Below are positions 1 through 21,640 of a stretch of DNA of 22,676 nt, one piece after another (position 1 is the first letter of the stretch; each line of letters opens with the position of its first letter). The position numbers and the translations under genes were made by a program. A model generated the notes under the pieces. That model was not told the origin of the DNA, ran no database searches, and saw only the letters and a program-made list of their open reading frames with translations. The stretch lies in NCBI GenBank assembly GCA_043754515.1, contig JAYUUO010000287.1:1-22676 (forward strand), given 5' to 3'. Source of the stretch: Armatimonadota bacterium. Lineage in GTDB: Bacteria; Armatimonadota; Armatimonadia; Armatimonadales; Armatimonadaceae.

Positions 1-50
1 GGCGTTGCCGCCGGTGCCCGCGCCCGTATCTAGGCCCGTCGCGCAGTAGC

Positions 51-431
51 CTATTTGCCCGCCCCAACCCGCTTAACCATGACCCAGTTCGTCTTTGTGC
101 CGGGATCGCGGTACAGGTGGATCTGCACCAGCGTCGGCCGCATTTTATAGGTGAAGGCGTAGGTCACTTCGGCGTCCAGCGCACCCGCCGCGACTCCGTC
201 CTTGAACCGCCCGAAGACGAGACGGTTATTGGTACAGGGCGCGAGCTCACGGAAGAAGTTGCGCCCCATGGCGTCCGAAGGGTTGACGTTCGCAAGCTCC
301 GACTCGTATTTGTTGTAAAGTTGGATCGTGCCGCCGTCGTCCACGCGGACACAACCGAATGGCAGGGCATCCACCTCGGACTTGCTCATGTGCGGCAAAT
401 CACGTAGTTGCTCGGTGGAAACAAAACTCAT
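51..431 (-). CDS. pyp: Photoactive yellow protein (PYP; p-coumaric-acid-binding PAS blue-light receptor), 126 aa
   Basis: Aligns without gaps to Halorhodospira PYP from Y42 to V125: YNKYE (Y42,E46), GRNFFRELAPCT (C69), FTYKMRPT (F96,Y98,M100), WVMVKRV (W119). Start re-assigned to ATG at 431 (MSFVST), preceded by AAGGAAGGAA; the upstream gene stops at 433. Confidence 0.93.
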   Translation of the reverse strand: MSFVSTEQLRDLPHMSKSEVDALPFGCVRVDDGGTIQLYNKYESELANVNPSDAMGRNFFRELAPCTNNRLVFGRFKDGVAAGALDAEVTYAFTYKMRPTLVQIHLYRDPGTKTNWVMVKRVGAGK

Positions 432-432
432 T

Positions 433-1089
433 TTATTTAATTCCTTCCTTCGCGTGAATGCCACCCGCCATAACGGATGATGCCACGTCGTTGCTAACGC
501 CATCCGCCGCGTCAAGGTTCGCGAAAACCGTGTCGCCGATTTCGTGTTCCATGTTGCGCACCATTTGCGCGACCAGTTTGAAGCGGCGCACCACGCTCCT
601 CGCGTCGGAATCGCCGAGTTCGACTTCTAGATGCTCACGGGCGGCGTACATCGTCATGAGTTGCGATTCCATCGAGCCGATCGTAGTCTGTAGCTGGCGG
701 AAGGCTTCGAGCACATCGTCAACTTCCGACGCGCCGATCTCGCGCTCCAACCGCTCCTTGTCCTCATACAGGCTGGCGAGTTGTTGCTCCATGGATGCCA
801 CCGAGCCGTTGAGCGATTCGATCTTGCCGGTGAACTGCCGGATTTTGAGTAGCACCTGTTTCGGGTCCGAAAGCCCGGCGAGCGGGTTGTCGTCGTCGGC
901 ACTCGGGGCGGGCGATAGCTCCGCGACCCGCGTTTCCAGGTTGCGGATGTGCGCGATGACGTCGGCGGCGCGCTCTAGGCCCAACTCCTTGCGGAGCCGT
1001 TCCCGGTCAACGCGAAGAGGCCCTATTTCGTTCTGTACCGCGTCGAGTTGCTCTTGCAGTGCTCGTGTTTTTCCCCCGAAGTTAAACAT
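433..1089 (-). CDS. Uncharacterised helical/coiled-coil protein with about three 40-aa repeats, adjacent to pyp
   Basis: 218-aa ORF with heptad-rich sequence. Repeats SMEQQLASLYEDKERLEREIGASEVDDV and SMESQLMTMYAAREHLEVELGDSDARSV are exactly 40 aa apart. Stop lies 1 nt before the pyp start. Confidence 0.85.
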   Translation of the reverse strand: MFNFGGKTRALQEQLDAVQNEIGPLRVDRERLRKELGLERAADVIAHIRNLETRVAELSPAPSADDDNPLAGLSDPKQVLLKIRQFTGKIESLNGSVASMEQQLASLYEDKERLEREIGASEVDDVLEAFRQLQTTIGSMESQLMTMYAAREHLEVELGDSDARSVVRRFKLVAQMVRNMEHEIGDTVFANLDAADGVSNDVASSVMAGGIHAKEGIK

Positions 1090-1135
1090 GTTTGTTGTCT
1101 CGAATCTGTTCGGTTATTTTTGTTCGTGATTTCCG

Positions 1136-2593
1136 CTACGAGTTGAGTGTTTTGAGTGCCTGATCCATGCTGTCGAGAAGGTCCGACATTTCGCGGTAGC
1201 CTTCCACGCGTCGTTCCAGACTGTGTATCATCGCGACGATTTCGCGGGCGTCGGTCTTCCCCAACTCGTTCTGGAAGACATACCGGTCCGCGCGTAGCGA
1301 CACCATTTCCTTCGCGGTCACTGCTAGCTGATCACGCGCCGCCCTTATTTTGCAGGCGATCTCGTCGGCGTCGGTGGTGTCGAACGCGCGGACTAGTCCG
1401 GCCCGGTTCGTCTCCTCGTCCGCCTCTTTCGCGGACAACTCGGTGACCCGGTCGCGTAGCCCTCGTACCAATGCCACCATCTGGCTTGCAACAACCGTGC
1501 CAAACTCGCGCTCCAGATATTCGTTTTCGGCGCGGGCCGCTTCGGCGCGGGTTTGCTGTTCGGCGACCAGTGATGACAACCGCCGTATCTCCCCGATGAT
1601 CCGCTCCCCCGTCACCGCGTCCCCGTACTCGGCGCGCAGGGTGGCGAGCGTGGCGCGCTCCCGCGTTATCTCTTTATGCGCCGTTCCGAGCGAGTCGAGC
1701 ACGTGCCGCCAGGAGATGATCAGCGTCGCCGGGTCGCTCGCCCCCGTCTCCACCCGCACGCGCTCCCAGTCGGCGGAAATTGCCCCCAATTCATGGCGTA
1801 ACGCGCGTAACTGCGTCTCGCGCTGGGCCGCCCATTCGGCGCGGGCGGCGCGGGTCGGGGCGTCATCGGGCTCGGTATCCGTTTCGGCACCCGCCGCGCC
1901 CTCGGTGGGCACCAGATGTAGTCGGCGGAACATGTCGGAGATGCCGTCTCTCCCCGAGACGCCGAGGTCGGATTCGAGTTCCCGCCACTCCCGCTCGCTC
2001 TCGTCGAGCCGCGTCGTCAACTGCTGGAGGCGGCCCTGGAGCGCGTGGGCGTCAACGATGACCATGCCCGACGGACTCCCATCGGCGAGATTATCCGAGG
2101 CGACCACATCCGCCCCCAGGAGCGACTCCAGCCGGGATACGTCGCCACTGGATACCGCCTCGCTCCCGGTCGGTTCGGCCAGGAAGTTCGTGATCCGGGC
2201 CAGATCGGGCCCGCGGAGCACCGGCTCCAGCGCGCCGAGAAGCCCGGACAGCATCGCGGCGCGGCAGAACAGGGCACCGTCCATGCGCCCGTTCTGGATC
2301 TGGTAGCCGGACTGTGTGTTGATCAGAATCCACTGCGCCTTGACCTGCATATAGAAGATCGCGGCGATAGTCTCCTGCTCCTGGGCGTCGTCCACGTCGC
2401 GGAGCACGCGGACGAAACCGTCGCGTAAGTGGACGACAAAGGCGCGGCAATCGGCGCGTTGCGCGGGCGAGGAATTCTCCCAAACCGCGAGACATTCTTT
2501 CCAGGCGCGCTCTAGTTCGGCACCGCCGAGGATAGCGATGATGCGCTCGCCCGCCGTCCCCGGCCTGTCGTCATATTTTTCATTTAACTGCAT
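1136..2593 (-). CDS. Uncharacterised protein: N-terminal globular helical domain plus about six 40-aa helical repeats
   Basis: Long ORF, open to 2737; ATG at 2593 (MQLNEKY) chosen but the start is uncertain. C-terminal units ETGASD/EYGDAV/EFGTVV/AFDTTD/ELGKTD are spaced 40,41,40,40 aa. Confidence 0.8.
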   Translation of the reverse strand: MQLNEKYDDRPGTAGERIIAILGGAELERAWKECLAVWENSSPAQRADCRAFVVHLRDGFVRVLRDVDDAQEQETIAAIFYMQVKAQWILINTQSGYQIQNGRMDGALFCRAAMLSGLLGALEPVLRGPDLARITNFLAEPTGSEAVSSGDVSRLESLLGADVVASDNLADGSPSGMVIVDAHALQGRLQQLTTRLDESEREWRELESDLGVSGRDGISDMFRRLHLVPTEGAAGAETDTEPDDAPTRAARAEWAAQRETQLRALRHELGAISADWERVRVETGASDPATLIISWRHVLDSLGTAHKEITRERATLATLRAEYGDAVTGERIIGEIRRLSSLVAEQQTRAEAARAENEYLEREFGTVVASQMVALVRGLRDRVTELSAKEADEETNRAGLVRAFDTTDADEIACKIRAARDQLAVTAKEMVSLRADRYVFQNELGKTDAREIVAMIHSLERRVEGYREMSDLLDSMDQALKTLNS

Positions 2594-2790
2594 TGGAATA
2601 AAGGTTCTAAATGGGATTTGGGCAAGAACGACGCAACCCGCGCCAAGAACGATCTGCCGATCACCGAAATATCTGCCGTTAATGGCGGACAAGTGTAGCA
2701 TTTTTCGCGCCGGATGTGGGCATGAATAGGTACCCATCGTCTAGCGCGACAAGCACGAAGCAAGCTTCCACAAATGCAATGTCATTTCTG

Positions 2791-2806
2791 AGCAAATAGC
2801 GTGCCA
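2791..2806 (-). promoter_or_regulatory. Sigma-54 (-24/-12) promoter of the pyp operon
   Basis: Minus strand reads TGGCACGCTATTTGCT, matching TGGCACG-N4-TTGCW with GG-N10-GC spacing. Intergenic and correctly oriented. Confidence 0.7.
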
Positions 2807-6863: not shown

Positions 6864-7847
6864 ATGTATACTGATCGCACACACAACAAACCGCTTTGCG
6901 CCGCTGTCCGAGTTATGACACTGGCTACTATTCTCACTGGCTCCATGACACCCACTTTCGCCCAATCGGTAGAGCCACGCCGCCTGTCGTCCAACCCGAC
7001 GGACCTGCACGATTCGTTCGCGCCGCACTCAACCTACGGGGACTCGCCCAAAGCGTTCGCCGACTACCTGTCCAAGAACGATGTGCTATTGCAACGTTAC
7101 TCCCGCCACTTCGGAGTATCGCAGGACCGGGTTTTGTCGTTCGTGCAGAACGCGCTCGTGCCGATGGATCTGCCGAGACAGGAGACTGTGACCACCTTCG
7201 GCGTGACCAAGAGCGGTAGCATCTACCCGGTGCGGACGACACTGCCGTCCGGAACGCGGGTATGGGCGACGCGCGAGGGAGCACCGGTCATCAAGTGGAA
7301 CTGCTCGAATCCCCTGACGACAGCCCTGCCGGGGGCGAGTTTAAGCACGAGCCCACTCGAATACGCGAATGCACCGTCGAACGTGTTGCCCGAGGGCTTC
7401 ACGCCCGTTCTTGATGTCCCACAGGGTGTAGCGATGGTCGCCTCGCTGGCTATGCCTGCGGATGGTGGCGCGCTAGCACTGTCGCCGCCGCTCCCTGCCG
7501 CTGACTTCGCGTTCGCGGTTCCCGCTACTGACGTGGTAGGGTCAAGTTCCCTGCCGGGCGTCGGTGACATATTGGAGAGGGTAGGCGGTTCGAGCATCAA
7601 CGATTATTTACCCGCGTTGTTGATCCCGCTTGTTTTCGCGGCGACGCAGGGCAAGGGTGGCAACGCGGATCTGGTGACCGCCGAGGCGGAACCCATCACC
7701 GCGCGACCTACCGCCGAGGGCACCACCCAGTTGCCTCCTATCGGCCCGACCGTGGTGCCGGAGGGCGACACCGCTGGACTGTTGGTCGCGGGTTTACCGC
7801 TCCTCGGCGCGTGCCTGTGGCTCGCCCGCCGACGCAGGGTCTCGTAG
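6864..7847 (+). CDS. Secreted PEP-CTERM-type surface protein with a DUF6777-like N-terminal domain
   Basis: Signal peptide ending TFA-Q. GTRVW...GAPVIKWNCSNPL resembles the CxNPL motif of DUF6777. C-terminus VVPEG + hydrophobic helix + RRRR. Confidence 0.78.
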   Translation: MYTDRTHNKPLCAAVRVMTLATILTGSMTPTFAQSVEPRRLSSNPTDLHDSFAPHSTYGDSPKAFADYLSKNDVLLQRYSRHFGVSQDRVLSFVQNALVPMDLPRQETVTTFGVTKSGSIYPVRTTLPSGTRVWATREGAPVIKWNCSNPLTTALPGASLSTSPLEYANAPSNVLPEGFTPVLDVPQGVAMVASLAMPADGGALALSPPLPAADFAFAVPATDVVGSSSLPGVGDILERVGGSSINDYLPALLIPLVFAATQGKGGNADLVTAEAEPITARPTAEGTTQLPPIGPTVVPEGDTAGLLVAGLPLLGACLWLARRRRVS

Positions 7848-8991: not shown

Positions 8992-10044
8992 CTACCTGGT
9001 TTCGGCACTCATCACGCGTCGGCGGCGAGACGCAATAGCCGCGACCGGCAAAACGACGCAAGTCAGCAACAAGCCAGTTCCTGACTCCGGTACGGCGGCG
9101 GTGGGGTTGAAGCGGATCGTGGTAGGTGCGGTTACCCCGCCTCCCGCGTCAAATAGGCGCGTGCTCAGCGCGTCGCCGTTTCGTAACGTGCCGGATAGAT
9201 CCCAGTAGAAGCCGCCGCTCCCGCCGAACGTACCTGCTGTTGGGTTGCTAAATTGCAGGTTATTGCCGTAGAAGTTGATCACGGCCGTTTGTGACTGGGC
9301 ATACACCGTATTCGGGCTGATGCGTCCTCCGTAAACATCCACCACCCCCGCGTTCGTGACCCGTAGATCACCGATGTCGCCCCCAGTGACAGAAATATGC
9401 GTGTTGTCATAGGCATACATGTGAAGAGTGGTGGCGGTGCCTCCGTAGGTGATCTCCGAGTTACCGAACCCGATGACGGCGTTCGCGAAAGAGCCTCCAG
9501 AGATGTTGAGAATGCCGTAGTTCGACGATTGGGCACCGTTATTAAAGCTCCCTCCGAGCACGTTGGCCGTGGCGCGTTTACCGCCGGGCAGGGTGGGTAC
9601 CGCGCTGGAGACGGCGATCTGCGTCGTACTCGTCCCCCCCATGAGTGTCAACAGGGCGCGATCACTGACATTGATTCCGTTGTTGATCAAGCCACCCGTC
9701 ACCGTGACCGTACTATTCTCCTGGGCATACAGTTGCTCGATGTAGGTACCCGAGGTCACCGACACGACGCTGTCGGACAAAGATTCCAGATTCCAAGAGT
9801 CGTGGGCACCTACCAGGTCGGCATGGACTCCGGCGAACCGATTGTTAGCGGCGTCACGCCCGACATAGACACCAAAGTCGGTGGAGGTGATCGGGTTGCC
9901 TCCCGCGACCGTGCGGTCGGCGGCAACATATAATCCGGCGTGGGCGGCGGGGGCGGATAGCAAGGCAAGTGCCCCCGATAAACAGAACAAAGCGGACACT
10001 CCGGCGAAGGTGGCCGCGGATGAATACTTACGAAGAAACGTCAT
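8992..10044 (-). CDS. PEP-CTERM surface protein with Gly-rich beta-helix-like repeats
   Basis: Signal peptide ending AAHA; repeated V/I-x-V/I-x-GG units; C-terminal AVPESGT + hydrophobic helix + RRRR. Confidence 0.85.
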   Translation of the reverse strand: MTFLRKYSSAATFAGVSALFCLSGALALLSAPAAHAGLYVAADRTVAGGNPITSTDFGVYVGRDAANNRFAGVHADLVGAHDSWNLESLSDSVVSVTSGTYIEQLYAQENSTVTVTGGLINNGINVSDRALLTLMGGTSTTQIAVSSAVPTLPGGKRATANVLGGSFNNGAQSSNYGILNISGGSFANAVIGFGNSEITYGGTATTLHMYAYDNTHISVTGGDIGDLRVTNAGVVDVYGGRISPNTVYAQSQTAVINFYGNNLQFSNPTAGTFGGSGGFYWDLSGTLRNGDALSTRLFDAGGGVTAPTTIRFNPTAAVPESGTGLLLTCVVLPVAAIASRRRRVMSAETR

Positions 10045-16441: not shown

Positions 16442-17539
16442 TCATGGCATCCCTTCTATAGGAAGAAAAGTCCCTCTGTCGTCGACATAGAACACGAAAC
16501 TCGCGCTCGTCCCCTCATCTGGGTTCGTGACGAGCACCGGAACGCTCCCCGCCGTGGCGATGTCGCTTGCGAGGATCGGCGCGGACAATTGCGTGGCCGA
16601 CAGGAACATGGTCTGCCGGTCGGTGCCCCCGAACTTGATCACCGCGCCGTTCTTGAAGTCTGTGCCGCCCACCGTCAGCGTGAACCCCGCCCCGCCTGCC
16701 GCTGCGGAAGCCGGACTCAGGTTGATGATGGCCGGCGTGGTCGTGGTCGGCACCACGAATGTCACCCCGTACTGAGCCGTCAACTCGTCGCGCAACTTTT
16801 GCTTGTCGCTTTTCGTGCCGTCCGGGTAGGTGTTACCGCCGATCTCATCCTCGGGGTCGGTTCCGTCCGTGTTGAAACGCCCCAAATTATAGTTCTCAGC
16901 TATGTAGGTGCCATCCGCTAACCGTCGGACGAACACTACGTACGACGCACCCTGCTTCATCTCGTAACAATTCTCTTTGACGGTCTTGTAGAACTGAGAC
17001 GAACTATTCTGGAGCAACCCGACCATCTCGACGAGCGGCACGGTCTGCCCCGCCGCGATGGTAGCACCCGACTTGAGATACTTCACCTGATCTACCGCGA
17101 ACGTCCCCCGCGTCCACTCGCTCTGGGGATATGTGTTTGGGTCCCGGTCAAGCACCTCCCTGTCGAAGTAGGTGGCGAAGTGCGTCCGCTCATTCACGAA
17201 CTCCTGCAACGGCCTGCCGACGATGATCGCATCCCACTCCTGGGCTCTGGATATTGTCTTTCTGTAGAACATTTCGGCCTGCTGATTTATAGTCTTGATC
17301 TTCCCCGGATCGAGATGCGCGGGTATCTTGATTTGAGCCGCCCTCTTGAGTAAAGTCAACTCTTTGGCGGAACCCTTCCGCGCCCCTCCATGCTCCCGCG
17401 CGGATGTGGCGGGGGAAGTCGCCTTCGCAATCTCCGCTGCCTTCGCGGATGCCGTTGGCCGCGAACGGGTGAGATACGCCGCTCCGAGCGTCCCCCCGAC
17501 CAGCACAGATGCTACAAGGGCGATAAGTTTTTTTGACAT
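16442..17539 (-). CDS. Secreted/membrane-anchored 'partner' protein, paralog 1, with C-terminal IPT/TIG-like Ig domain
   Basis: N-terminal hydrophobic segment. Core shared with paralogs 2 and 3 (IVG.P.Q.FV, ENC.E.KQ, GRFNTDGTD.EDE). IPT-like INLSPAS...FTLTVGGTDF...VTNPD. Starts 3 nt after the protease stop. Confidence 0.85.
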   Translation of the reverse strand: MSKKLIALVASVLVGGTLGAAYLTRSRPTASAKAAEIAKATSPATSAREHGGARKGSAKELTLLKRAAQIKIPAHLDPGKIKTINQQAEMFYRKTISRAQEWDAIIVGRPLQEFVNERTHFATYFDREVLDRDPNTYPQSEWTRGTFAVDQVKYLKSGATIAAGQTVPLVEMVGLLQNSSSQFYKTVKENCYEMKQGASYVVFVRRLADGTYIAENYNLGRFNTDGTDPEDEIGGNTYPDGTKSDKQKLRDELTAQYGVTFVVPTTTTPAIINLSPASAAAGGAGFTLTVGGTDFKNGAVIKFGGTDRQTMFLSATQLSAPILASDIATAGSVPVLVTNPDEGTSASFVFYVDDRGTFLPIEGMP

Positions 17540-17542
17540 GGT

Positions 17543-18220
17543 TTATTGCCCCCACTTCGCGATGAGTTCGTTCACATCATAGGCTTGTAGGCCATCCAGC
17601 ACAAACCCATCGGGGAACTCAGCTTGTTGCTCCATGATAGAACGCCTTCCCGCGCCTAGCGGCTTATCATCGCGGAACGTTCCCTGACCCTTCTTGGGGT
17701 GGGCGAACTTCAGGCTGTGCCCGATCTCATGCGTCGCTATTTTTGTTTGTAGGCGCATCTCGAAGTCCGCGTCGCCACCAGCCGCAGCCTGAATATTCCC
17801 CGGGTACATCGCGATAGTACATACATACCAGTTTAAATCGTGATCTAGCGTCCTTGTAAGATTGTTACTGCTTGTACCCGTATAATAGCAGGTCAGGGCA
17901 CCCATCGTGTTGTCTAGTGTCTCGCCGACGAAAAATTTGTCCGTGCGGGGGAGCCAGCTGCTCCGCTCGAACATGCCTGCGCTGACTGTCGAGGACAGAC
18001 TCCCGTACCACGCCTGTATTCCCGCGCGGAACGCTTCGGGGTAGCCCGATCCGTACTCATAGACGGACCGCGCCAGGAAGTAACCGTTGCACGCGTTGCC
18101 GTTGCTACGTGTACCATTCCAACTGTCGGCTAACACCGACGTACCGTTCACCACGGCAAGGGCAACGGCAAGTGCCAGAGAGGCGACGGCGCGGGCGCGC
18201 CATTTGCTTGAGAAAACCAT
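17543..18220 (-). CDS. Secreted metzincin (matrixin-like) zinc metalloprotease, 225 aa
   Basis: HEIGHSLKFAH zinc motif, Met-turn RSIM, C-terminal YDVNELIAKW. Signal peptide from ATG at 18220 ending VLA-DSW; purine-rich GAAGGAAAGG upstream. Confidence 0.85.
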   Translation of the reverse strand: MVFSSKWRARAVASLALAVALAVVNGTSVLADSWNGTRSNGNACNGYFLARSVYEYGSGYPEAFRAGIQAWYGSLSSTVSAGMFERSSWLPRTDKFFVGETLDNTMGALTCYYTGTSSNNLTRTLDHDLNWYVCTIAMYPGNIQAAAGGDADFEMRLQTKIATHEIGHSLKFAHPKKGQGTFRDDKPLGAGRRSIMEQQAEFPDGFVLDGLQAYDVNELIAKWGQ

Positions 18221-18271
18221 AATCACGAGAACCTTTCCTTCGTTGTCGAAACACACGGGGGGCACGATTGC

Positions 18272-18302
18272 CCCGCTCGCCTTATACAATAAGGCGAGCG
18301 GG
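18272..18302. repeat. Perfect 14-bp inverted repeat upstream of the protease gene
   Basis: CCCGCTCGCCTTAT-ACA-ATAAGGCGAGCGGG. Confidence 0.8.
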
Positions 18303-18416
18303 CTTCTGTCAAGGTCGCTTCCCACGCATTTATACCGGTTTCCGCGCGGGTTGAGAGCGATCTCCATAGATCCACGACGAGACCGATCCGTTTGACTACC
18401 GGGCGGGCGTCGGGCT

Positions 18417-19470
18417 TCACGCTACCGTCCGGGCTACGGCACGTTCGTATTGGGCTGAGTAGCTGGAGGTCCGACCGCCCCCCGTGACGCGGACGCGGTA
18501 GCCCGCTTTGATGACGCGGGGGAGCGACATAGTGAGCAGCACCGGGCTGGTCGCGGTCCGCGCCTCGGCGGGCACGGCTTGCGTGCCGCCCACCGCCCAC
18601 GCCCCGTCACCCGCCTGCTTCTCGACCTGGACGGACGTGCCCGCCGGTTGCGGCACGGCGATGCTCACCCGGAGCGCGAGCGCGGCGGGCGTGGGCGGCG
18701 TTCCGGGGTTCGGCGCCGAAGGGCGGCGTGCCGACATTCGGCGCGACGAAGCCGTGCGACACAACGCCCGGGCCCGGCAGCGTGCCAAACGCCACGCCGT
18801 ACGCCGCGGTCAACTCCTCGCGCAGTGTTTGTTTTCTGGTCTTGGTCCCGTCGGTGTTTACACCGCCGGGGGCGTTCACCTCGTCCTCGGCGTCAGTACC
18901 GTCCGTGTTGAAACGGCCCTCGTTCAGGTTCACCAGCCAATAGACACCATCCCTGCTGTGACGGTCGAGCACCATAACGTAGCGCGAGTTCTGCTTTGTT
19001 TCTCGGCAATTATCTTCGACGGTTTTGATGATGTTACCGTTCTCCGTTACCAACCCGACCGGCTCCGCATATCGGATCGTTTGCCCGGCACTTATCGGGT
19101 CACCAGGTCGCGCATACAGCACCTGATCTACCACGAAACTGCCCTCGGACCAGGCCTCATTCAAGTAGCTCGCAGAATCCCTATCGAGGGGGTCGAATGG
19201 CTGGTTGAGTATAGTGTAGAGGTGAGATCTGTCAACGAAGCCCTGTGTAGGTCTGCCGACGACGATCGAGTTGTTATCCGCTTTGATAGCACTCAACGTC
19301 GAGAGGCTAAAGTATCTACAATCAGCGTGGGTAGTCTTAACCTTCGCCAGATCAGTCCCTCTAGGAACTGTCGTACGCTTAACCCCTGCCCGTCGTGACT
19401 GGCTTGGCGGGGAGCATGAGGTGGCGGCTATCAATATGGCTAGGGAGCACAGTTTTATAATCAGTTTCAT
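18417..19470 (-). pseudogene. Lipoprotein 'partner' paralog 2, frameshifted near 18717
   Basis: Lipobox-like IAATSC; paralog core to YGVAF. The reading frame drifts after FVAPNVGTPP, and a protein-like beta-rich C-terminus continues in another frame to the stop at 18417. Restoring 2 nt gives about 351 aa, similar to the paralogs. Confidence 0.75.
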
Positions 19471-19471
19471 C

Positions 19472-19597
19472 TCAGTCCCCCCACTCAGCGCGTAGTTCTT
19501 GGATGTCGTAATAGCGAGTGCCTTTCCACGTATCCGCCCGACTCATGGTAGAGATGAGGGACAGACATACCAGCAGAGTTACACACACGCTTCGCAT
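19472..19597 (-). pseudogene. 41-aa internally deleted paralog of the metzincin protease (not in ORF track)
   Basis: Translates as MRSVCVTLLVCLSLISTMSRADTWKGTRYYDIQELRAEWGD*. ADTWKGTR matches protease ADSWNGTR and YDIQELRAEWG matches YDVNELIAKWG. Stop is 1 nt before the paralog 2 ATG. Confidence 0.8.
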
Positions 19598-19752
19598 CGA
19601 GTTGTCAAAGATAGCATACGTTGAAACGCCCCGGTTTGTTTAGTACAGGGAACCATCCCCCAATTCAAAGTAGACTTTGAAGCGCGAACCGCCGTAACGA
19701 GACGTTGTTTCCTTCTGACGATTATTTCACGGTGACCGACGGACGCAGTCAG

Positions 19753-19768
19753 TGGCACGAAAATTGCT
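19753..19768 (+). promoter_or_regulatory. Sigma-54 consensus site
   Basis: TGGCACGAAAATTGCT, a perfect match to TGGCACG-N4-TTGCW; intergenic. Confidence 0.6.
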
Positions 19769-19873
19769 ATGGACAGGGCGTTGCGAGGCCCGCGCCGACC
19801 ATGTCTACTGGATCTGGTTTCGGTACACGCCGGGGCTGATGTGGTAAGGCGTCGGAATATCTTCTGTTCACTT

Positions 19874-19902
19874 TTGACGCGGTTGTTCATCCGCAGTATA
19901 CT
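19874..19902 (+). promoter_or_regulatory. Sigma-70-type promoter of the TA-like operon
   Basis: TTGACG-N17-TATACT, 27 nt upstream of the ATG at 19930; imperfect palindrome GCGGTTGTTCATCCGC in the spacer. Confidence 0.75.
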
Positions 19903-19929
19903 CTACTAAATACGGAGCAACCGAGAACG

Positions 19930-20184
19930 ATGCCCACCCTGACTCTTGAACTACCGGACGCGGCATACCATGCTGCGCTTGCCCTCCCCGAAACAGAGCG
20001 AGTGCGTCGCGCCACGTTCGCTTTTATAGACGACGAGGGAGATGGACCGGATTACGATCGCGAAACGGACGAGGATGACCTCGCCGCTATCGGCCGCAGT
20101 CTTGAGGACGAGGCCGCAGGGCGCATCATACCCGGTGATATAGCCCTCGCGCGATTCAGACAGCAATTCAAACGGAACTCATAG
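19930..20184 (+). CDS. Putative type II antitoxin (small acidic protein)
   Basis: 84 aa; N-terminal TLTLELPD; acidic middle; C-terminal AIGRSLEDEAAGRIIP typical of antitoxins partnering RelE/ParE toxins; upstream of a toxin-like gene. Confidence 0.65.
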   Translation: MPTLTLELPDAAYHAALALPETERVRRATFAFIDDEGDGPDYDRETDEDDLAAIGRSLEDEAAGRIIPGDIALARFRQQFKRNS

Positions 20185-20207
20185 CGGCAGATGGAAATGA
20201 TCCGCTC

Positions 20208-20615
20208 ATGAACCCGCTTCAACTCGACCTCAGCGAGTCGGCACTTGCCGAGCTGTCAGCGGCAGGAGAGTACGTGCGCTTCAGTCAGGGCGATACCGCC
20301 GCCGAACGCTTCAGTGAGAGAGTTTCCGAAGCGTTCGGCGCGGCGACCACACGGCTCGCCAGGGAAATATCCCAGAACATAACAGGGAAACCATTCGATC
20401 CGGTTGATCCGGTGGCTTCCGCCCGGTGGGCGCAGCCAGTGTACCGCATGCGCGTCGAAACGGCTGACAAGCGGGCGCGGTATAGCAGCGCGAGGCTATG
20501 GTATGTACTACTCGCTCCGTGACAAGGGGGGGTTGGCAGACCTGATACGTTACTGATTCACGGCTTGCGGCATAGCGCGACGCGCCCGCTCGATGCCGAG
20601 CAAGGCAACGGGTGA
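20208..20615 (+). pseudogene. RelE/ParE-like toxin interrupted by TGA at 20520-20522
   Basis: N-terminus LDLSESALAEL...AAERF is ParE/RelE-like. The same frame continues past the TGA as QGGVGRPDTLLIHGLRHSATRPL..., resembling the family's final strand, to a stop at 20613-20615. Confidence 0.55.
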
Positions 20616-21640
20616 AAACGGGACCCGGTTGCCACTAGATCGTCTACCCAGAAGACAAAACTCGCGCTCGTCCCCTCATCCGGGTTCGTGACGGTGATGT
20701 CAAAGCCTCCTCCGGCCGCTATGTCGCTGTTCTGGATCGGCGCGGTTAGTCGAGTCGCCGACACAAACGTGGTCTGCCGGTCGGTGCCCCCGAACTTGAT
20801 CACCGCGCCGTTCTTGAAGCCGGTGCCGCTCACGGTCAGAGTGAACGCCGGCCAGTTCCCTGTCACGACGCCGGACGGCCCGACGCCCATGATGGTCAGC
20901 GGGGCCGTGTTCGGCACCGCGAATGTGACGCCGTACGCCGCCGTCAACTCGTCCCGTAACATTTGCTTGAAGGATTTTGAGCCGTCGCGCTTTGTATTCC
21001 CCGTGACTTCGTCCTCGGCATCGGTCCCGTCCGTGTTAAACCGCCCGAGGTTGGCGTTGAACGTCTGATACTTGCCGTTCCTTTTTCGCTTCAAGAAAAG
21101 GACATACCGACTGTTCTGCTTCAGCTCGTAGCAGTTCTCGATGACGCTCTTGAACACCCCCTGTGCGCCGTAACTCATCAAGCCCACAGGTTCGCTTACC
21201 GAGATGACCTGTTCCACCTGGATTGCCGTCCCCGATAGCACACTCTCGACACGGAACGCGCCGTCCGTCCACTCTATCAGCGGGAGGCTTTCACCCCCTT
21301 TGTCGAAGATGCTCACGGGCGACATCAGGGCGTAGTGCGCCCGCCCGTAGACAAACTCCTGCGTTGGCGTGCCCACGACTATCGCATCGGCGTTCGCTAA
21401 TACGTCGGCCAACGTTTCTCGGTAACGGATGCAACTCACCGGCCCCGCGATGTGAATTTGACTCTTTGTGATGCCTTTCGGCAGGCGCGATTTGACGACA
21501 CGATAACGAGGCGTGCGTCTAACCGCACTTCTGCTCGCTTTACTTTTTGTCGGCGGCTTCGCGGTGCCAGCGGAGTGCGCGGCGACGGGAATCAGGACGC
21601 ACACCAATAAGAACCCTGCCCAATTTGTTATTCGCATCAT
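20558..21640 (-). CDS. Secreted 'partner' protein, paralog 3, with C-terminal IPT/TIG-like domain
   Basis: Signal peptide; core DAIVVGTPTQEFV, ENCYELKQNSRYV, NLGRFNTDGTDAEDEV; IPT domain nearly identical to paralog 1. Confidence 0.85.
   Translation of the reverse strand: MMRITNWAGFLLVCVLIPVAAHSAGTAKPPTKSKASRSAVRRTPRYRVVKSRLPKGITKSQIHIAGPVSCIRYRETLADVLANADAIVVGTPTQEFVYGRAHYALMSPVSIFDKGGESLPLIEWTDGAFRVESVLSGTAIQVEQVISVSEPVGLMSYGAQGVFKSVIENCYELKQNSRYVLFLKRKRNGKYQTFNANLGRFNTDGTDAEDEVTGNTKRDGSKSFKQMLRDELTAAYGVTFAVPNTAPLTIMGVGPSGVVTGNWPAFTLTVSGTGFKNGAVIKFGGTDRQTTFVSATRLTAPIQNSDIAAGGGFDITVTNPDEGTSASFVFWVDDLVATGSRFHPLPCSASSGRVALCRKP

Follow-up and report, generated by a model that had tools for sequence, protein, structure and literature searches.

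Two uncharacterized helical protein families encoded with photoactive yellow protein in an Armatimonadota bacterium are candidate light-signaling partners

A photoactive yellow protein operon, its candidate promoter, and its probable chromophore supply

A stretch of 22,676 nucleotides (nt) from an Armatimonadota bacterium (assembly GCA_043754515.1, contig JAYUUO010000287.1; the whole stretch is called the window here) was analyzed for three minus-strand genes, designated A, B, and pyp, the last encoding photoactive yellow protein (PYP). PYP is an already known photoreceptor; A and B represent two uncharacterized families of candidate partners, and the conserved module that they form with pyp is real. 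The host genome (G000, in which the window contig is C287) is 92.7% complete. Gene A (1136..2593; 485 amino acids [aa], ATG at 2593) was predicted to encode an N-terminal domain, termed A_N, followed by degenerate 40-aa helical repeats, and relatives of A begin at the same offset from the A_N domain. Gene B (433..1089; 218 aa) encodes helix-break-helix repeats, and pyp (51..431) encodes 126 aa. Minus-strand open reading frame coordinates bore out the arrangement given in an earlier note on this DNA, with three co-oriented genes separated by gaps of 46 nt between A and B (1090-1135) and 1 nt between B and pyp (432).

By residue, profile, and structure matches, the pyp product is a member of the PYP family. 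The residues Tyr42, Glu46, and Cys69, which the earlier note had read as intact, were confirmed as Y39, E43, and C66 (an offset of +3) in comparison with solved PYP structures (E = 5e-27), with Ala at the equivalent of position 50. The match to TIGR02373 (E = 2e-35, 121 bits) fell under the cut-off of 143, as do those of clade-B PYPs in a table of the survey PMC9664959. That survey places PYPs of Armatimonadota, Leptospira, and Salinibacter in clade B, and the window PYP is assigned to this clade provisionally, by taxon and similarity rather than by a tree. Among 29 PYPs of similar modules (alignment A9), Gln occupied the Glu46 position in 8 and Val the Tyr42 position in 5, shares that exceed the family-wide figures reported in PMC12826048.

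The contig ends 50 nt past pyp, and positions 1..50 (minus strand) probably hold the 5' end of a gene for a pCL-like AMP-dependent ligase, the rest of which would lie on contig C156, the join itself being putative. This fourth operon gene is likely because the ends of C287 and C156 overlap by 19 nt, the ligase at the C156 end is 64% identical to the one that follows pyp in locus L005, and an AMP-binding gene lies directly after pyp in both L004 and L005. The host genome contains one TAL-like aromatic amino acid lyase, on contig C10 and unlinked to pyp, which carries His-Leu at the specificity position of the alignment, a pair that we take to be of the tyrosine-lyase type.

The contig break falls within a perfect GC-rich inverted repeat immediately after the pyp stop codon (window 1-35 and the C156 end). 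The repeat apparently falls within the 5' part of the ligase gene, where an ATG start was not obvious, and L004 and L006 have weaker ones. It may stabilize pyp mRNA or attenuate the ligase; folding of the 60-nt part within the window was no better than that of shuffled sequences (z = 0.42). In some metagenomic loci (L058:584-3579, L051, and L052), the three genes were flanked by genes resembling 4-hydroxyphenylacetate 3-hydroxylase and radical-SAM genes, and in two loci of this type pyp was present as two different copies; the chromophore there could conceivably be modified, for example to a hydroxylated coumarate.

Upstream of gene A by about 200 nt lies an exact, intergenic TGGCAC-N5-TTGC site (2792..2806, minus strand), which agrees with the consensus -24/-12 promoter claimed in the earlier note, with the consensus used being what we take to be that of sigma-54. 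Genome-wide, the TGGCAC/TTGC motif occurred at 41 sites with a 5-nt spacer versus 4 to 20 for each spacer of 1 to 4 and 6 to 11 nt (approximately 11 expected), and the host genome carries rpoN and one enhancer-binding activator. By consensus, spacer, rpoN, and activator, 2792-2806 is a candidate sigma-54 promoter. A relaxed site was present upstream of A in all three close relatives (L004, L005, and L006). Sigma-54 control of the module appears to be lineage specific, because such sites near the module were limited to this operon, its three closest relatives, and the region upstream of a preceding gene in L012. A further exact motif lies within gene A (1488-1502, minus strand), about 400 nt upstream of B, with matches in L004 to L006; it may be protein driven, probably so because the EFGT repeat turn falls there, or it may be an internal promoter. 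The sole strong activator match (L075:2525-5485, on contig C66 of G000) follows a GAF-type histidine kinase gene. By eye it has receiver and AAA domains with no obvious C-terminal DNA-binding helix, and it would serve approximately 30 above-background sigma-54 sites.

Contigs from an ice metatranscriptome spanned the A/B gap (X17, 1017-1169) and the B/pyp junction (X20, 335-515) at a depth of about 3. These contigs give a weak hint of A-B-pyp cotranscription, as they come from a single study with runs chosen using the window DNA, could derive from carried-over DNA, and are not equivalent to transcripts. Near-identical DNA was present in an ice metagenome (X5), and close relatives were named Armatimonadota.

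Two helical families and their linkage to pyp

The earlier note described both upstream proteins as built from 40-aa repeats. Both A (z = 3.7) and B (z = 4.2) indeed had their best self-similarity at a lag of 40 among lags of 5 to 99 (500 shuffles); residues ~12 to 146 of A, however, form a separate globular domain rather than a repeat. This domain, A_N (~135 aa; 2156..2560, minus strand), was delimited from an AlphaFold2 model and conservation as compact and all helical (pLDDT 96, pTM 0.89; 82 sequences), with a conserved helix motif, YxxxKxxWxxxN. Overlooked in the earlier note, A_N is the most conserved element, and it is through A_N that a link to chemosensory output is seen. The degenerate repeats that follow (1139..2020, minus strand) number five or six, with turn anchors at residues 282, 322, 363, 403, and 443 and another at 209, and a C-terminal half-repeat resembles the B motif.

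No Pfam or NCBIfam family passed its cut-off for A or B, and A_N had no useful match in Pfam, PDB sequences, or the ESM Atlas and none by Foldseek at E ≤ 1e-3. The best VIA-align comparison (Z = 8.9, root mean square deviation 4.5, 121 aligned) was to generic helical bundles and lies in a range common for such bundles; the absence of closer structural matches to the model does not indicate a new fold. The A_N profile matched 363 clusters at 50% identity (E ≤ 1e-3), with named members including Bacteroidota and Leptospira, and elsewhere among bacteria A_N occurs as a stand-alone protein. A word-index search with alignment A2 returned just six proteins and yielded no taxonomy, and a plasmid search with stand-alone A_N gave no match.

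Gene B encodes approximately four repeats, two with canonical M-E-x-Q-L-x-x-L/M-Y motifs (residues 100-108 and 140-148), and the QLxxLY repeat is its strongly conserved feature. In other bacteria, B is reduced to 60 to 70 aa, and its two motifs are spaced by 33 residues. In the monomer model (pTM 0.24), the all-helical chain is interrupted where the repeats turn and does not pack into a compact fold, as might be expected of an elongated oligomer. An SMC/Rad50-type coiled-coil ATPase was considered for B and rejected, as matches reached 12 to 23 bits against cut-offs of 300 to 1087 and covered coiled-coil parts only.

The neighborhood survey of pyp homologs proposed in the earlier note was run on 401 genomes of the phylum, among which kin (4 families, 10 genera) are not independent. 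PYP was found in 14 of the 401 genomes. The window A_N query likewise detected 14, with 12 common to both sets, and the A_N profile placed A_N no farther than about 2.5 kb from pyp in 13 of the 14 PYP genomes. The B profile detected 16 genomes, including all 14 with PYP, where B adjoined or was fused to pyp; since the B and A2 profiles include rows from positive genomes, matches there arise partly by construction, and scarcity elsewhere is the informative part. Of 23 places found with the A_N query, 17 adjoined pyp, 2 adjoined a degenerate PYP-like gene, and 4 lacked pyp. Homologs of the repeat proteins therefore occur mostly with pyp, rather than mostly without it as would have spoken against the earlier note. 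The trio also stays together although gene order and strand vary between loci, and 16 of 19 metagenomic A_N loci hold both PYP and B (approximately 12 of 14 once near-duplicates are merged).

The two extra genomes found with A_N have a degenerate PYP-like neighbor and a degenerate A_N motif. In genus g2, the PYP-like gene has lost Y/E/C (read by eye), the A_N motif is degenerate too (W77/N81 lost), and the B profile finds no match. Of the two extra B genomes, G309 holds a fragment at a contig end and G075 an orphan B. The host itself carries a second A-B-pyp operon (L001; G000:C150:62987-65544), whose PYP is 54% identical to that of the window with the triad intact and for which no upstream sigma-54 site was found; it possibly has a different photocycle or regulation.

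Shorter and longer paralogs of A were seen outside these operons. One with A_N and degenerate repeats lies downstream of a greA-like gene in a genus-conserved position (G000:C136:26538-27668 [L003], G270:C37, and G386:C147), and a shorter one lies on G000:C193.

Fusions, chemosensory links, and the proposed light relay

Architectures were counted among the best 150 A_N profile matches. Stand-alone proteins (≤185 aa) made up 78, degenerate repeats as in the window protein 27, canonical B repeats (identified by regular expression) 8, and tandem A_N 2, with 22 unclassified; 11 joined A_N to a CheA-like tail, and 2 were full CheAs with a C-terminal A_N. A further protein (P0087) combined A_N with a canonical B repeat. 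The fusions of A_N to canonical B repeats were named Leptospira in three clusters, and their accessions were not found in the supplements of PMC9664959. Pfam searches of 59 of the longer proteins among the 150 detected CheW in 10 and HATPase_c in 4.

In the 11 CheA-like fusions, A_N occupies the usual position of Hpt, and 10 have a CheW Pfam match. The patterns of the ATP-binding N-box and the G2 box were absent from all 11 and present in both full CheAs. The CheA-like proteins are likely kinase-dead array components because both patterns are absent. The position of a helical bundle in place of Hpt could also mean that A_N is a divergent Hpt-like phosphotransfer domain and that the module signals by phosphorelay. 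This is highly improbable, as no alignment column has a conserved His (the highest share is 26% over 82 rows), 21 A_N members gave no match to Pfam Hpt at E ≤ 1, and the fused proteins lack the two boxes that the full CheAs retain. They resemble catalytically defective CheAs that localize with chemoreceptor arrays, of which the noncanonical CheA3 and CheA4 of Cereibacter sphaeroides are described in bioRxiv 10.1101/2023.09.19.558490; unlike those proteins, they hold a PYP-linked, His-less domain at the Hpt position. As far as that preprint's account extends, CheAs without Hpt are given only as assembly errors or bipartite systems.

Beyond fusions, the trio neighbors CheA in L047, an MCP-domain protein and HDOD in L048, and a dimer-plus-CheW protein in L063. 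CheW was not found in any of eight tested genomes of the host family or in G000 and was found in all seven tested genomes from other families; G000 also gave no MCP match. Among the phylum loci inspected, the long form of A, with its repeats, is found mainly in the CheW-less host family, with the CheW-positive G175 as an exception. In five genomes tested, flagellin was not found and PilT was found in all, the host having several PilT ATPases and no match for flagellin. A gas-vesicle search was negative in the same number of genomes (0/5) and is uninformative, as no control matched.

Taken with the conserved linkage to pyp, fusions of B to PYP, of A_N to B, and of A_N to CheA-like proteins support a functional partnership. 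The direct partnership proposed in the earlier note is upheld to that extent, and it is fairly probable that A_N and B are signal-relay partners of PYP, forming a light relay of photoreceptor, adaptor, and docking domain. Holo-PYP would form and photocycle, and PYP would bind the QLxxLY-repeat adaptor B, the A_N docking domain, or both in a light-dependent manner; its partly unfolded signaling state (PMC12826048) would alter its affinity for them. Their charges are complementary, with a pI of 8.6 for PYP versus 5.0 for A_N and 4.7 for the B core. The protein that contacts PYP may be B, which is fused to PYP in one genome, or A_N, which degenerates with it. A_N would then act as a transferable output adaptor that carries the signal onward. 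In flagellated hosts it would be wired to chemosensory arrays through the fusion in which it replaces Hpt on a CheA-like protein that has a CheW domain and no N-box or, alternatively, through a gene position next to CheA or a short MCP-domain protein. In the present host, A_N would top a rod of degenerate repeats, and A and B are proposed to coassemble, because of the A repeats and the C-terminal half-motif resembling B, as a long helical scaffold by which PYP would be clustered or positioned. The leading guess for the output here, held with low confidence, is control of type IV pilus motility.

Several observations weigh against this relay. The profile matches in positive genomes arise partly by construction and the kin are related, as noted above; A_N paralogs lie on pyp-less contigs (G000 C193, G000 C136, G270 C37, and G386 C147); and in G075, B was detected but neither PYP nor A_N was. 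In G036, where B repeats are fused to a degenerate PYP, the fusion is accompanied by only a weak, unlinked A_N match. Three of the 19 metagenomic loci lack pyp, on contigs of 2.7 to 3.7 kb, two of them near-duplicates. No A_N-PYP fusion was present in the best 150 matches, and no output gene linked to the module was found in the host genome. Sequence-distance correlations over 18 loci were highest for A_N-B (0.71) and lower for both PYP pairs (A_N-PYP, 0.49; B-PYP, 0.35); they were not counted as coevolution, because shared inheritance alone yields such values.

The orphan A paralogs, the one orphan B, the rank of the A_N-B correlation, and the excess of A_N-B over PYP fusions would be expected if A and B were co-regulated effectors, for instance a helical polymer with a structural or stress-protective role, that associated with each other and not with PYP and traveled with pyp through shared regulation and cotransfer. 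This is unlikely given that B is directly fused to PYP in G036, that the trio outlasts reshuffled order and strand and changes of promoter, and that genus g2 shows joint decay of A_N and PYP. In another account, A_N and B would be biogenesis helpers that chaperone apo-PYP or pass p-coumaroyl-coenzyme A from the ligase to PYP, with no part in signaling. Many loci do have an AMP-ligase gene after the trio, and an aromatic lyase often accompanies it or is fused to it, whereas A_N is joined to CheA-like or full CheA proteins in 13 of the 150 matches, G175 retains both A and B next to a C69S PYP that lacks a neighboring ligase, and the operon of Halorhodospira halophila is described in PMC12826048 with pyp, pcl, and tal only; the helper role is accordingly rated as quite improbable.

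Neighboring genes and comparison with known PYP systems

Elsewhere in the window, three related, secreted-looking proteins (365, 287, and 360 aa; 16442-21640) were predicted, two with IPT/TIG domains. A metalloprotease-like gene of 274 aa lies between them. The region also holds two small genes (19930-20522) that resemble a toxin-antitoxin pair and had no Pfam match, and position 19753 marks a sigma-54-like site. Two further proteins (6864-7847, with DUF6777, and 8992-10044) carry VPE-type sorting-like tails, which we take to be PEP-CTERM-like.

Partners of single-domain PYPs are largely unknown according to the surveys PMC9664959 and PMC12826048. Recurrent pyp neighbors listed in the latter include GGDEF/EAL proteins, kinases, and MCPs, with others left as hypothetical; its row for Gemmatimonas phototrophica places in the pyp operon a CheW-like protein of 491 aa and a "pseudogene" of 399 nt, which may fit the present module, by size only. 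Like the pyp-pcl-tal operon of H. halophila (as described in PMC12826048), the host has a single-domain PYP with Y42/E46/C69, a probable ligase gene downstream, and a lyase in the genome; unlike it, the window has two upstream genes of undescribed families and a sigma-54-type site, and the lyase is unlinked. In a table of PMC9664959, clade-B pyp genes are flanked by genes marked "None," including two upstream of pyp in Armatimonas rosea, and the main-text sections consulted contain no characterization of such unannotated neighbors. That survey proposes nearby sensor-less chemoreceptors as PYP partners; in contrast to those clade-B neighborhoods, the host genome has no chemoreceptor match. Searches of the literature, with most subscription journals outside their coverage, returned no description of the A_N or B families.

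A precedent for the proposed mechanism is PBP of Rhodobacter capsulatus (bioRxiv 10.1101/2021.06.01.446672), an acidic protein whose gene adjoins pyp and whose binding to the basic PYP depends on the light state. Compared by description, PBP (142 aa) is predicted to contain helices and beta-sheets, unlike A_N and B, which are predicted to be all helical.

The two families provide concrete, probably soluble candidates for PYP partners, with minimal natural forms of about 135 aa (A_N) and 60 to 70 aa (B), and the A_N-CheA-like fusions offer a route from PYP to chemotaxis. A small light-switched pair of this kind would be a useful optogenetic part. More tentatively, A_N and the QLxxLY repeat may be dedicated, hitherto undescribed relay partners of clade-B PYPs in several phyla. 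Light-activated PYP would switch a complex of B and A_N, which A_N would couple to chemosensory arrays by way of a kinase-dead CheA-like protein in some lineages; in this nonchemotactic, pilus-bearing, glacier-associated one, the switch would have been moved onto a rod of 40-residue repeats that forms a scaffold or filament under light control.

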